11,382 nt of DNA from a virus, in the IMG/VR virus record IMGVR_UViG_3300029989_000305. One strand, given 5' to 3'. Shown here piece after piece: positions 5,103-7,783 of this stretch. Positions within the stretch are counted from its first letter, which is position 1. Each line of letters opens with the position of its first letter. Under the pieces are notes generated by a model. The model had not been told where the DNA came from and did no database searches. It was given only the letters and a program-made list of their open reading frames with translations. The translations under genes were made by a program, and so were the position numbers.

Positions 5103-5312
5103 TTATTTATTTTTTAATAAGTCTTTCAATTTATTTTGTAATATTATTATCATTTTACTTGAGTATTTTTTCCAACACTCATCATATGTCATTATTTTAT
5201 TACATCTTGTACAATTAGTAGAACAATTATCATCAATTTTACTAGCAACTTTATTATCAAAAAGTCTAATTAAATCTGGTGTATGTCCAAAAATTTTACA
5301 TTTTATTTTCAT
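5103..5312 (-). CDS. Cys-rich small protein of 69 aa (C..C...C..C, possibly a zinc ribbon). Its start is embedded in the last array junction and its tail LQNKLKDLLKNK is array-like.
   Basis: ORF track. Its ATG overlaps the tail codons (QNENKM*) of array member 5296..5523, exactly where other members start. Confidence 0.5.
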   Translation of the reverse strand: MKIKCKIFGHTPDLIRLFDNKVASKIDDNCSTNCTRCNKIMTYDECWKKYSSKMIIILQNKLKDLLKNK

Positions 5313-5523
5313 TTTGTAATTGTTTTAATTTTTTATTTCTTTGTTCTTTTAGTGAAATAAATCTTGAAGCTAAATAAAGAAAGTCTATATTATTTATTGC
5401 AACGCATGTAAGTCCAGATTTAGTAACAGTATATACATCTGAATAATTCAAATAATATAAACTATTATTATTTCCTAATTCTAAATTATCTATACAAACT
5501 ATTTTTTCTCCTATTTTGAACAT
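5296..5523 (-). CDS. Array member 10, 75 aa: MFKIGEKIVCIDN...ASRFISLKEQRNKKLKQLQNENKM.
   Basis: ORF track, family motifs, and a 13-nt overlap with the upstream member. Confidence 0.6.
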   Translation of the reverse strand: MFKIGEKIVCIDNLELGNNNSLYYLNYSDVYTVTKSGLTCVAINNIDFLYLASRFISLKEQRNKKLKQLQNENKM

Positions 5524-5747
5524 ATCAATTGTTTTAATTTTCTTGCTCTTTGTTCTTTTATTGATATAAATCTTGACGACTTAAAAAATATTTTTTTGCC
5601 ATTATTTATACGTATATTATACGTATTGTCATTATAAAATTTAAAACTAGAAACTTCTTCTATTGTATATATACTATCACAATTCAGATTAGAATAAATT
5701 GTATCACCAGGAACAACACAAATGATTTTATCTCCTACTTTGAACAT
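5511..5747 (-). CDS. Array member 9, 78 aa: MFKVGDKIICVVPGD...SSRFISIKEQRARKLKQLICSK.
   Basis: ORF track, family motifs, and a 13-nt overlap. Confidence 0.6.
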   Translation of the reverse strand: MFKVGDKIICVVPGDTIYSNLNCDSIYTIEEVSSFKFYNDNTYNIRINNGKKIFFKSSRFISIKEQRARKLKQLICSK

Positions 5748-5941
5748 ATTTTTTTCAATTTTTGTTTTCTATATTCAGATATTTGTATGAATCTTGTTGA
5801 ACTATATGACATTTCTGAGCCAATCACGGCAATATAAATTTTTCCTATTTTTAATTCTTTTGCTCTATCATTATTGATACAAACTATTTTATCATTGTCA
5901 TTAATTGTATAGTTAAAACCTATATTAATATAATTATGCAT
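5735..5941 (-). CDS. Array member 8, 68 aa, with a divergent N-terminus (MHNYINIGFNYTINDNDKIVCINN). The C-terminus STRFIQISEYRKQKLKKICSK is conserved.
   Basis: ORF track. The C-terminal motif is retained. The N-terminal GDK motif has degenerated to NDKIVCI. Confidence 0.5.
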   Translation of the reverse strand: MHNYINIGFNYTINDNDKIVCINNDRAKELKIGKIYIAVIGSEMSYSSTRFIQISEYRKQKLKKICSK

Positions 5942-6203
5942 TTTCTAGTTTTATCAATTTTTGTTTTCTTTTATAATTTTCTAATGACATGAATCTATTA
6001 GATGGATAATAATAACAACTATTAATTCCATTTAAAAATAATTTATCAGTACAATATGTTGTTCTCTTGTGATTATGTATATCAAAAAAAAAACAAATAA
6101 TTGTATATATTTTATTCTCTTTCAATTCTACAATTGTGATCATATCATTTTCATTACGACTAACATTATCAGCACAAACTACTTTATCACCAATTTTAAA
6201 CAT
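5934..6203 (-). CDS. Array member 7, 89 aa: MFKIGDKVVCADN...PSNRFMSLENYKRKQKLIKLENA.
   Basis: ORF track, family motifs, and an 8-nt overlap (AATGTTTAA). Confidence 0.6.
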   Translation of the reverse strand: MFKIGDKVVCADNVSRNENDMITIVELKENKIYTIICFFFDIHNHKRTTYCTDKLFLNGINSCYYYPSNRFMSLENYKRKQKLIKLENA

Positions 6204-6660
6204 TTTTTAACTGATTAAGTTTATTTTTTCTATAATCAGATAATTTAACAAATCTATCAGGATAATATCTACCTCCAATTTTTTCATATAAATATACATT
6301 TTCAACAATTTCATCATATTTATCAATGTATGGAACATAATTAGATATAGTATAAATAGAGCCTTTTATTAGAGTGTTTGCGCATTTACCACGGTTATCA
6401 ACACAGACTACTTTATCACCTATTTTTAATTTCTTACTATATTCTTTTAATGTCATAAATCTACTTGATTTGTAGATACAATTATCAATTTCTTCTACAA
6501 ATAAATACTCATCATAGAAATCAATTTTTTTAGAATTGATTTTATCATAAAAAATACTAACAGTATAAATTTTATTTAATACTAAATTTTTTATTGATAT
6601 ATTATCTGTTTTAGTGTGACTAATAATATCAAAGCAAATCACTTTATCACCTACTTGCAT
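6196..6660 (-). CDS. Array member 6, 154 aa. It is a tandem fusion of two family domains: MQVGDKVICFD...SSRFMTLKEYSKKL, then KIGDKVVCVDNRG...PDRFVKLSDYRKNKLNQLKNV.
   Basis: ORF track. Both the N-terminal and the C-terminal motifs appear twice within one ORF. Confidence 0.6.
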   Translation of the reverse strand: MQVGDKVICFDIISHTKTDNISIKNLVLNKIYTVSIFYDKINSKKIDFYDEYLFVEEIDNCIYKSSRFMTLKEYSKKLKIGDKVVCVDNRGKCANTLIKGSIYTISNYVPYIDKYDEIVENVYLYEKIGGRYYPDRFVKLSDYRKNKLNQLKNV

Positions 6661-6880
6661 TTATTTGTTTAATTTTATTTTTTCTATATTCAGATAATTT
6701 AATAAATTGATAATATCTCCACGTATAATCACTTTCTTCAACATAAATAGTATTATAATCTAAATTTAGGTGATCATCATATACTTTTCTTATTGTATAA
6801 ATATTATATTTTTTCAACATATGACATTTATAGTAACCTTCTGATTTGATACAAATTACTTTATCTCCTTTTTTTAACAT
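6647..6880 (-). CDS. Array member 5, 77 aa: MLKKGDKVICIKSEG...YQFIKLSEYRKNKIKQINASR. It ends in a TGA stop.
   Basis: ORF track, family motifs, and a 14-nt overlap. Confidence 0.6.
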   Translation of the reverse strand: MLKKGDKVICIKSEGYYKCHMLKKYNIYTIRKVYDDHLNLDYNTIYVEESDYTWRYYQFIKLSEYRKNKIKQINASR

Positions 6881-7125
6881 TCATCTAAAAGTTTAAGTTT
6901 TTTTGTTCTTTCCTCTTTTATATAATCAGGTATTGATAAAAATTTATAAGATTCCTGATTATATTCAATGTCACCAAGTTTAAAATATGTAATCTCATCA
7001 TATAGATACACACTAGCAAGAATATCTAATATTTCATATTCTTTTCCAATAATTAATTGTTTACAAATTATTCTATCACTATCAAATGTTTTAATACAGA
7101 CTACTTTATCTCCTACTTTTAGCAT
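6874..7125 (-). CDS. Array member 4, 83 aa: MLKVGDKVVCIKTFD...YKFLSIPDYIKEERTKKLKLLDEC.
   Basis: ORF track, family motifs, and a 7-nt overlap. Confidence 0.6.
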   Translation of the reverse strand: MLKVGDKVVCIKTFDSDRIICKQLIIGKEYEILDILASVYLYDEITYFKLGDIEYNQESYKFLSIPDYIKEERTKKLKLLDEC

Positions 7126-7364
7126 GTGACTATCTTATTTAATTTATCTCTTCTCACACTTTTTATATAGTCAGTTATTGATAAAAAATTATATGTCTCC
7201 CATTGATAATCACTACCAACAACTTTAATGTAGTCATAATCTATAAAATCTATTCCTTTATGAATATTTAATATTTCATAAATATCATAAATAATTAAGT
7301 CATATAAATTACCACCATCATCAAAATTACAAATACAGACTACTTTATCTCCTACTTTGAACAT
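7119..7364 (-). CDS. Array member 3, 81 aa: MFKVGDKVVCICNFDDGG...YNFLSITDYIKSVRRDKLNKIVTC.
   Basis: ORF track, family motifs, and a 7-nt overlap. Confidence 0.6.
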   Translation of the reverse strand: MFKVGDKVVCICNFDDGGNLYDLIIYDIYEILNIHKGIDFIDYDYIKVVGSDYQWETYNFLSITDYIKSVRRDKLNKIVTC

Positions 7365-7578
7365 TTTCTAACTGTTTAAGTTTTTTATATCTTAAAATTA
7401 TTAAAGATTCAAATCTATCAGTACCATACTCAACATTATATCCTATTTCACACAGTTTACAATAATGAAAGCCAGACTCAAGTATTGTGTATGTTTGACC
7501 TTTTTTTACATTAATTTCAATATTTGTAATAGAAATAAATTCTTTCTTACAAATAACTTTATCACCTACTTTGAACAT
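7345..7578 (-). CDS. Array member 2, 77 aa: MFKVGDKVICKKEF...RFESLIILRYKKLKQLENVQSRR.
   Basis: ORF track, family motifs, and a 20-nt overlap. Confidence 0.6.
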   Translation of the reverse strand: MFKVGDKVICKKEFISITNIEINVKKGQTYTILESGFHYCKLCEIGYNVEYGTDRFESLIILRYKKLKQLENVQSRR

Positions 7579-7783
7579 TCTGTAACTGTTTAAGTTTATT
7601 GGTTCTAATTTTTCTTAATGATACAAATCTACTTGAATAATAAGACAAAAAAGTATCATCATCATAATAAATATATGTTACACCGTTATTAAGATCAGAG
7701 TAAACAACATAAGATTTATTTAGTTCTAACATTGAAGAACCATCAGCACAAACGCAAACTACTTTATCTCCTCTTTTGAACAT
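7562..7783 (-). CDS. Array member 1, 73 aa: MFKRGDKVVCVCADG...SSRFVSLRKIRTNKLKQLQNVQSR. It ends in a TGA stop.
   Basis: ORF track, family motifs, and a 17-nt overlap with member 2. Confidence 0.6.
   Translation of the reverse strand: MFKRGDKVVCVCADGSSMLELNKSYVVYSDLNNGVTYIYYDDDTFLSYYSSRFVSLRKIRTNKLKQLQNVQSR

Follow-up and report, generated by a model that had tools for sequence, protein, structure and literature searches.

We analysed an 11,382-nt stretch of viral DNA (IMG/VR virus record IMGVR_UViG_3300029989_000305; the window in the following means this whole stretch) which carries on its minus strand, at positions 5296-7783, an array of ten successive open reading frames (ORFs) of 68-154 aa representing eleven units of one family. 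It is well supported that the units of this array form a multigene family which is lineage-specific and belongs to a huge phage of Mahaphage type, and that they follow each other head to tail. Structure modelling likewise gives good support to a unit that consists of a small SH3/KOW-like five-stranded barrel and a conserved basic amphipathic helix. This C-terminal helix, called the tail below, is not specific to the barrel family but is a portable element which is selected as protein.

The family profile was built from an alignment of the eleven units, for which the 154-aa ORF was split in two. In the window it detected exactly 11 units with E values from 1e-14 to 1e-29, including two separate matches (E 1e-26 and 2e-19) within the ORF 6196-6660. 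The consensus of the unit alignment is MFKxGDKVVC...L....IYTI...Y.S.RF.SL..YR..KLKQL, and the units share 28-42% identity with the first one. The array is composed of the following genes.

7562..7783, minus strand: array member 1, 73 aa, opens the array; profile E 2e-23; its start lies 3 nt past the stop of the upstream gene 7787-7957.
7345..7578, minus strand: array member 2, 77 aa (ORF list, profile); 17-nt overlap with member 1.
7119..7364, minus strand: array member 3, 81 aa; 20-nt overlap with member 2; tail insertion of 3-4 residues (DYIKSVRRDKLNKI).
6874..7125, minus strand: array member 4, 83 aa; 7-nt overlap; positional orthologue in the related locus L002 75% identical.
6647..6880, minus strand: array member 5, 77 aa; 7-nt overlap.
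6196..6660, minus strand: array member 6, 154 aa, formed by two units fused in frame (approximately 6424-6660 and 6196-6423); 14-nt overlap with member 5.
5934..6203, minus strand: array member 7, 89 aa, with the longest loops of the array; 8-nt overlap; orthologues 61% (L002) and 69% (related locus L004) identical, with 61-73% over its counterparts in these two loci.
5735..5941, minus strand: array member 8, 68 aa; 8-nt overlap; an N-terminal extension of 12 residues replaces MFKVGDK, also in the orthologues.
5511..5747, minus strand: array member 9, 78 aa, the unit chosen for structure prediction; 13-nt overlap.
5296..5523, minus strand: array member 10, 75 aa; 13-nt overlap; its stop lies 17 nt inside the unrelated gene 5103-5312.

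The original prediction, which was made from the letters of the DNA alone, had described a ten-gene minus-strand array with shared termini and one in-array fusion. The ORF list and the eleven profile matches bore out the array, and the two-unit nature of 6196-6660 was confirmed by its two profile matches and two predicted barrels. The statement that all ten genes share the N-terminus was slightly overstated. M[FL]K[VIKR]G[DE]K[VI][VI]C is found in 8 of the 10 genes, the exceptions being 6196-6660, which begins with MQVGDKVIC, and 5735-5941 with its 12 extra residues ahead of DKIVCI. At the other end the consensus RF-I-S-L-K-E-Y-R-K-x-K-L-K-x-[IL] holds, with 3-4 residues inserted in two members (7119-7364 and 6874-7125), but it is not a property of this family alone, as 62 ORFs that are not SH3-like carry the tail as well. 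Members 3 and 4 are the closest paralogues of each other and share a repeat of 142 nt with 70% identity according to the repeat finder. In member 6 (6196-6660) the tail of the first unit is shortened to EYSKKLK.

For the unit 5511-5747, AlphaFold2 was run on an alignment of 123 family sequences and resulted in a model with a mean predicted local distance difference test score (pLDDT) of 88.7 and a predicted template modelling score (pTM) of 0.72. The model consists of five strands, after which residues 63-76 form a helix. The features of the SH3-like small beta-barrel fold class, namely five strongly bent antiparallel strands in about 60 residues, are thus all present in the predicted unit, in agreement with the barrel plus C-terminal helix that had been proposed. 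The fused product of 6196-6660 was predicted as two barrels linked by the shortened first helix (pLDDT 83, pTM 0.67), and its structural matches were single barrels only, with uL24 on top. Identity of the units to any solved structure does not exceed 21%.

Hydrophobic core positions are conserved in the units (L21, I26-Y27-T28-I29, I45, I47, Y55), and the loops between them vary among paralogues in length and sequence. The earlier description of the core as almost unalignable therefore went too far. The constant part is made up of strand 1 (G-D-K), which also holds a nearly invariant Cys, R59-F60, and the helix, where R67 and K70 are nearly invariant and L63, Y66, L71, and I74 are conserved. 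Conservation is thus not confined to the dual-coded junction nucleotides: conserved positions extend over the entire unit, and internal repeats of multi-domain proteins, where nothing is dual-coded, keep the N-terminal motif as well. In SH3-like folds the loops usually make up the ligand-binding face. The net charge of the barrels lies between -7 and +2, with an average of 0. Based on this average, the idea that acidic barrels act as DNA mimics was rejected.

Direct reading of the junction sequences gave overlaps of 17, 20, 7, 7, 14, 8, 8, 13, and 13 nt between successive genes of the array, which matches the predicted overlap of stops with next starts by 7-20 nt. The conserved N-terminal codons ATG TTC AAA GTA GG(A/T) GAT AAA hold stop codons in both other frames. 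Read in the +1 frame, the start of a unit becomes TGT TCA AAG TAG (C-S-K-stop), and in the +2 frame it becomes GTT CAA AGT AGG TGA or ...AGG AGA TAA (V-Q-S-R-(R)-stop). In the start variants ATG CTA AAA and ATG TTT AAA, a TAA is reached after 7 or 8 nt. Because of these hidden stops an upstream unit ends 7-20 nt inside the next unit in whichever frame it arrives, and the same codons account for the recurrent endings ...ICSK and ...NVQSR in the window and in the wider family. The overlapping layout is self-propagating under tandem duplication, which leaves the overlap intact.

Repetition of the junction DNA, also part of the original prediction, was found at several levels. The exact 13-mer CTACTTTGAACAT occurs at 3 array junctions. 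With up to 3 mismatches allowed, the 23-mer ATGTTCAAAGTAGGAGATAAAGT was found at 7 gene starts, compared to 0 in 200 shuffles. The repeat finder further delivered a junction repeat family of 48 nt with 9 copies, 63-77% identity, and a spacing of 205-245 nt or double this distance. A Shine-Dalgarno sequence was not visible ahead of the array starts in the junction sequences. The overlaps could couple translation of neighboring genes via termination-reinitiation. Runs of six or seven A were observed just 5' of several starts, within the tail codons of the upstream gene, e.g. at 5741-5765 and 5517-5540 (both minus strand). A slip at such a run would join neighboring units into multi-barrel proteins like 6196-6660. 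Programmed frameshifting at these A-rich runs would have to go in +1 or -1 direction depending on the junction, and hence no consistent frameshift design is apparent.

The phage from which the array derives could be placed by homology. The window is very AT-rich (GC 20-35%) and contains on the plus strand an ORF of 817 aa (1634-4087) coding for a homologue of the eukaryotic major vault protein with matches to MVP_shoulder (E 2.5e-27), Vault_3, and Band_7. This vault-protein homologue is 88-93% identical in sister phages and shows the lowest nonsynonymous divergence (dN 0.036) of the region. Among deposited phages, tblastn matched it only to three huge genomes of uncultured phages, LR756500 (462 kb) and LR756501/LR756503 (735 kb), at about 50% identity. 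The genome of 735 kb falls within the Mahaphage clade, the largest members of which were predicted to infect Bacteroidetes (PMC7162821). A mention of vault proteins was not found in the huge-phage paper. Proteins of the window were also found on metagenomic contigs of up to 711 kb. These homologies suggest that the array belongs to an AT-rich, lytic-type huge phage of Mahaphage type.

Comparison to related phages, which had been proposed as a check, revealed differences in copy number. At the syntenic place, 14 genes with 15 units were found in the loci L002, L005, and L006 (vault-protein homologue 93% identical to that of the window) and nine genes in L003 and L004 (88% identical), while the window has 10. 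Copy numbers of 9, 10, and 14 fit unequal crossover at the repeated junctions. Between the relatives, extra units are inserted at several positions of the array, and the fused gene is absent in the L004 type. Gain and loss of units probably proceed via recombination at the repeated junctions. Best hits and synteny assigned window member 4 to L002 member 2 and window member 6 to L002 member 5 (75% identity each), and member 9 shares 44-51% identity with its counterparts. Overall, array orthologues are 44-75% identical and window paralogues at most 50%, the closest ones sharing 46-50% protein and about 70% DNA identity. The comparisons show that the array evolves by birth and death of units, and apparently neither by concerted evolution nor by recent amplification. 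In five other assemblies of the same phage (L007-L012), whatever part of the array each one contains is 100% identical to the window.

A single deletion joined two units into 6196-6660. Orthologues of this gene were found at 93, 75, and 70% identity, each of them fused, and the fusion is an old and maintained gene. The first loop of the units differs at just about 20-40% of positions across 13 orthologue pairs. Most changeable among orthologues are the hairpin tip and the segment ahead of the last strands. Since the loops are kept between orthologues, the array seems to consist of retained specialised members rather than to present a continuously hypervariable surface. A hypervariable middle in the sense of an ongoing process, as originally proposed, is contradicted by this retention of paralogue-specific loops and by the absence of near-identical repeats.

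A diversity-generating retroelement or hypermutation was considered and rejected, because near-identical direct repeats are absent and the best pair is 142 nt at 70%. No reverse transcriptase was found among the scanned ORFs of the window, the remaining window ORFs being shorter than 140 aa and thus too short. Compared to genomic accordions, copy number varies (9, 10, 14), yet recent near-identical copies are absent. Nonsynonymous divergence amounts to 0.15-0.53 for array orthologues versus 0.04-0.30 for flanking genes. For synonymous divergence (dS) a median of 0.84 was obtained for old paralogues and an overlapping 0.3-0.8 for orthologues, values that are saturated or compressed at 22% GC, so that dN/dS ratios are not interpretable.

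The family is not restricted to this locus. The same genomes contain further arrays of 14 and about 10 units at a distance of 20-30 kb, and a pattern scan of viral contigs identified 24 further stretches with up to 16 units, all with 21-27% GC; some of the 24 overlap one another or previously fetched loci. In L004 at 13324-13783 two units, C7 and C8, have truncated tails ending in ...RFKLDNSYYRKKN and ...RFISLKRI. These may be decaying copies.

The tail motif R-[RK]-x-K-[LI]-x-x-[IL] was scanned as R[RKG]xK[LI]xx[IL] and was regarded as C-terminal when located within 12 residues of the end. This position was occupied by 25 of 26 occurrences in the locus L029, 17 of 17 in L018, 18 of 20 in L023, 16 of 17 in L002, and 8 of 9 in the window. 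Seven loci contained 113 tail-bearing ORFs, 51 of which are SH3-like and 62 are not. Grouped by N-terminal part, the latter make up at least 40 clusters, including a membrane-anchored family to which 70-432 of the window belongs, and searches of Pfam and PHROGs assigned no family to them. In the window, the motif takes the form IE[STA]Y[LIV]R[KG]KK[LI]... in tail ORFs outside the array. These are as follows.

8201..8386, minus strand: non-SH3 ORF, 61 aa, with a tail-type end (IESYVRKKKLENINKK; motif scan).
8389..8565, minus strand: non-SH3 ORF, 58 aa, with a tail-type end (IEAYIRGKKLNKINKNK; motif scan).
70..432, plus strand: ORF of 120 aa with hydrophobic N-terminal segments, apparently membrane-anchored, with a tail-type end (IETYLRKKKIKKLK; motif scan).
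9576..10025, minus strand: ORF outside the array, not SH3-like, with the tail motif in an internal position (motif scan).

In L002 and L004, paralogues of 70-432 precede the vault-protein gene. In the locus L029 (7273-14711; GCA_043956695.1, a contig of 248,662 bp with 25% GC) a run of more than 30 successive small genes of 70-118 aa was observed at the contig end. Most of these overlap or abut, nine SH3-like members stand among several other N-terminal types, and nearly all end in ...YLRR[IV]KL[ED]KI[CRK]SKI or a close variant. This contig is unrelated to the window.

Several observations concern the question whether the tail merely follows from base composition or gene arrangement. The motif is entirely absent from the stretches of LR756500 and LR756501, whose AT content is similarly high. 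A narrower pattern scan of viral contigs yielded 61 loci, of which the 24 stretches mentioned above carry family units and 37 served as negative controls. In these 37 stretches, GC contents of 17-28% included, there were no tails in 33, one in each of three, and four in one. An exact back-translated tail pattern had no match in the viral contigs. The conserved Leu of the tail is encoded by six codons (TTA 40, CTT 21, TTG 7, CTA 5, CTC 4, CTG 1) and the Arg by four, and this variation of synonymous codons shows selection on the amino acids. Ten ORFs retain the tail without any gene in the next 50 nt; 108 of the 126 tail-bearing ORFs (86%) have another ORF within 5 nt downstream. The tail carries a net charge of about +4. 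More distant versions are ...EYRxxKLxxLGI on 11 dispersed barrel proteins of LR756502, and ...LRKxKIxxLL on eight ORFs of LR756504. In the LR756502 homologues the tail is far less basic (EYRNNKLKEIGI), with R, K, L, and I still fixed.

Database searches associated the family only distantly with known ones. No Pfam or NCBIfam model scored above threshold for the array members or the other family members. A match to the KOW models of Pfam was found neither for the 10 window proteins nor, among the matches listed (the best 25 of 38 families), for 123 family members, and the KOW glycine-lysine motif is absent from the units. SH3 models of Pfam remained below threshold, SH3_13 in 4 of the 123 members (best E 0.0031) and SH3_15 in multi-repeat relatives alone, and the Pfam scans did not place the family among the eukaryotic-type SH3 domains that bind proline-rich peptides. 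Window members further matched Phage_ProQ_C_like (13.6 bits, cutoff 27), the C-terminal domain of DUF6695 (16.5, cutoff 25), and PUA_4 (22.6, cutoff 23.9), in all cases below threshold. With E values of 0.0023-0.076 their matches to PHROGs were weak. In the wider family, 29 of the 123 members matched phrog_14634 at E below 0.01 (best 1.2e-7) and 24 of 123 phrog_4927 (best 2.2e-6), and the multi-repeat relatives matched phrog_4317 with E 2.5e-36. This indicates that phrog_14634, phrog_4927, phrog_4317, and phrog_19430 are probably distant relatives of the barrel rather than clear members.

A search of PDB sequences with the family profile gave a chance-level match only (PglB, E 0.24). In known phages, neither megablast with the whole window nor tblastn with one member found a match, and a consensus query returned weak ones, the best in Acinetobacter phages (E 2e-5). 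A strict pattern, which could miss distant barrels, found no family member in bacterial and archaeal genomes taken one per species. Neither the family nor the tail was found described in the literature searched. The profile search of the full library, on the other hand, resulted in 5,834 cluster representatives at E <=0.001, 711 of them at <=1e-10. Most are proteins of 69-90 aa which match the profile end to end, and a minority are large proteins of up to 1,941 aa with 3-16 tandem barrels. The inspected multi-barrel proteins have short linkers between the repeats and lack the basic helix. The same module thus exists in two states, on the one hand in separate genes and on the other in covalently linked repeats. 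By Rosetta-stone reasoning, the existence of the linked state suggests that the separate products of the array may act side by side as well. One multi-barrel relative, P0121 (737 aa), has six barrel repeats behind an N-terminal domain of about 335 residues. Residues 1-335 matched neither Pfam nor PDB sequences; as a partner domain it might hint at function.

The reading that we favor, although tentatively, is that of co-expressed binding modules which share a docking or sorting helix. The members would be produced together, probably through termination-reinitiation coupling, and would act as a set in which the paralogue-specific loops give each module its own target. The shared tail would tie all members to one common partner or destination, which dozens of unrelated small tail-bearing proteins would use as well. 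A constant helix that is shared with unrelated proteins and selected as protein most likely contacts something that all its carriers have in common; candidates are a nucleic acid, a hub protein, some destination, or the carriers themselves. It is plausible that the targets are host factors or defence proteins, as the original prediction had proposed. Some points weigh against this explanation. Binding by the array proteins is inferred rather than shown. The tail of the SH3-like members may do no more than pack on the barrel, and tail conservation could partly serve translation initiation of the downstream gene, given that 86% of tail ORFs are followed by a gene and that the tail codons are A-rich. 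The faster divergence of the array could reflect relaxed constraint instead of adaptation, the dS ranges being overlapping.

A bolder version, which we regard as possible but on the whole rather unlikely, takes the tail as a portable targeting or docking tag that is carried in each genome by dozens and perhaps hundreds of otherwise unrelated small proteins and is read by a single receptor. A hub of the phage or the host, a compartment, the virion, or a protease might serve as this receptor, whose clients would include soluble barrels, helical proteins, and the membrane-anchored family. If this applies, the phage encodes a sorting system of its own with the SH3-like arrays as the largest client class, each paralogue delivering a different target to the hub. 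A C-terminal degradation tag was also considered and would be a sub-case of the docking-tag reading favored above; MuA is an example of a protein with a basic ClpX signal at the C-terminus.

Four further explanations, each of lower probability, were weighed against the binding modules with a shared helix. Barrel and basic helix together could constitute a general RNA/DNA-binding module, as in uL24/KOW, Tudor, and ProQ C-terminal domains, which modulates translation, transcripts, or DNA and in which paralogue differences are mostly drift or fine tuning. This is consistent with the annotation of phrog_14634 as 'DNA binding protein' (29 of 123 members, best E 1.2e-7), the weak Pfam matches to Phage_ProQ_C_like, and the tail charge of about +4. 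We consider it unlikely since these matches are all generic or below threshold, the barrels are on average uncharged (-7 to +2), and neither the KOW motif nor, among the matches listed, a Pfam KOW match was found in the window proteins and the 123 members. Moreover, the less basic tail in LR756502 with its fixed R, K, L, and I resembles a specific contact and not plain electrostatics, and the same tail is found on a membrane-anchored protein. The latter would also be an unlikely capsid cargo, which speaks against the tail as a packaging signal that loads internal proteins into the very large capsid for ejection with the DNA. T4 internal proteins share an N-terminal capsid-targeting sequence, and here, too, many unrelated small proteins of variable regions have one terminal peptide in common. 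A basic tail could lie along DNA, and neighbors of T4 auxiliary type (RNA ligase and Phage_30_3) fit this picture. However, the tag is C-terminal, a protease cleavage motif is not evident, and head or scaffold genes were not seen near the arrays in any locus examined, which leaves packaging with a small probability.

Still less probable is an explanation at the DNA or RNA level, in which the conserved ends are due to the dual-coded junction, either as an A-rich initiation region in a non-Shine-Dalgarno host or as a recombination linker like T4 PeSL, and the proteins themselves do little. Shuffling through PeSL elements has been documented in T4-type phages (PMC2839356) and provides a precedent. 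The 48-nt junction repeat family (9 copies, 63-77% identity), the 108 of 126 tail ORFs with a next ORF within 5 nt, the A-rich tail codons, and the lack of a visible Shine-Dalgarno sequence 5' of the starts all point in this direction. On the contrary, the conserved Leu and Arg show free variation among their synonymous codons, ten tail ORFs have no gene in the following 50 nt, and many genes that are tightly followed by another lack the tail. Conserved positions are spread over the whole unit, the units are predicted by AlphaFold2 to fold confidently, and orthologues are maintained among genomes whose vault-protein homologues are 88-93% identical. We attach the least credence to cargo or docking adaptors for a vault-like shell of the neighboring vault-protein homologue (1634-4087), the second role that the original prediction had offered. 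The array is located about 1.2 kb from the vault-protein gene, an arrangement kept in L002 and L004, and C-terminal cargo tags occur in encapsulins and engineered vaults. Co-occurrence disfavors this role. LR756500 and LR756501 have the vault-protein homologue, but the family unit and the tail are absent within 20 kb, and in LR756502 (11 family members) and LR756504 (one unit, 8 tail ORFs) tblastn found no vault-protein match. Arrays are also located on contig stretches far from the vault-protein gene.

The surroundings of the array in the window add the following features.

5103..5312, minus strand: gene of a DUF1660-like zinc-ribbon protein, 69 aa, not of the family; PF07874 E 1.3e-4, 22.8 bits (cutoff 21.4).
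4715..4750, minus strand: terminator-like hairpin followed by a T run; closes a co-directional minus-strand block from about 11163 to 4753 that includes the array.
4124..4160, plus strand: terminator-like hairpin with a T run; ends a plus-strand block whose last gene is the vault-protein gene.

The 17-nt overlap between member 10 and 5103-5312 gives the array protein the end ...LQNENKM, which is read over an unrelated start, and 5103-5312 may be translationally coupled to the last array gene. The facing hairpins 4124-4160 (+) and 4715-4750 (-) mark a boundary of convergent transcription, and the entire minus-strand block down to the hairpin 4750-4715 may form one transcription unit. The block of the array also contains three very hydrophobic ORFs of 56-64 aa (7787-7957, 10417-10611, and 10617-10790, minus strand), likely membrane proteins. 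A promoter scan was uninformative (78 sites versus 79 expected), and Rfam and tRNA scans found no RNA genes. Beside the second array of a sister phage (L031; JGI 3300029982, a contig of 221,902 bp) there are genes at 4729-5253, 12726-13277, 14088-15110, and 18277-18765; the neighbors of this array include a LOG/lysine-decarboxylase-like protein, a cytidylyltransferase-like protein, an RNA ligase, and a homologue of T4 gene 30.3. As these neighbors are of T4 auxiliary type, the arrays seem to sit among T4-style auxiliary genes.

Huge phages of 0.5-0.7 Mb consist mostly of genes without known function, and this family, with dozens of copies per contig, is among their largest repeated components. 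Its fold is now predicted with confidence, its mode of evolution is clear, and its overlapping layout can be explained by a simple rule in the sequence. A tail common to many unrelated proteins provides an experimental handle, as one peptide could be used to fish for the common partner, and such a partner could assign a role to a large share of the unexplained genes. Should the tail prove to be a tag for sorting or docking, it would represent a new organising principle for the deployment of accessory proteins in very large phages.

Known systems share parts of this organization. In contrast to the SH3-like KOW, uL24, and Tudor barrels, the units reach no Pfam threshold and add the basic C-terminal helix and the Cys in strand 1. 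The barrel is detectably related to phrog_14634, phrog_4927, phrog_4317, and phrog_19430 (function unknown or 'DNA binding protein'), but neither the basic tail nor an overlapping tandem arrangement was evident from these matches. T4-type internal proteins are defined by a terminal targeting peptide, cleavage by the prohead protease, and presence in virions. Like the tail ORFs, those of T4 are unrelated small proteins with one short terminal peptide; here, however, the shared peptide is C-terminal and without sign of cleavage or capsid targeting. Encapsulin cargo peptides and vault-targeting domains are short C-terminal elements on unrelated proteins as well, and a shell homologue adjoins the array. 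They have no sequence similarity to the tail, though, the co-occurrence fails in related huge phages, and at least one tail protein is membrane-anchored.

The poxvirus ankyrin/PRANC and genomic-accordion families are tandem paralogues with copy-number change and a constant terminal element next to a variable body. The array resembles these multigene families of eukaryotic viruses in its paralogue arrangement, copy-number change, and constant end with variable body. It differs in fold, host domain, and scale, and the absence of recent near-identical duplicates marks an old maintained family. The hyperplastic regions of T4-type phages, like the array, consist of clustered small genes that are non-essential and vary in content from one close relative to the next, and in either case conserved short junction sequences can act as recombination sites (PMC2839356). 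Their cassettes are unrelated ORFans separated by intergenic promoter-terminator elements, whereas the array genes are paralogues of one barrel joined by a dual-coded coding junction. What sets the array apart from both the T4 regions and the families of eukaryotic viruses is a C-terminal helix which crosses family boundaries.

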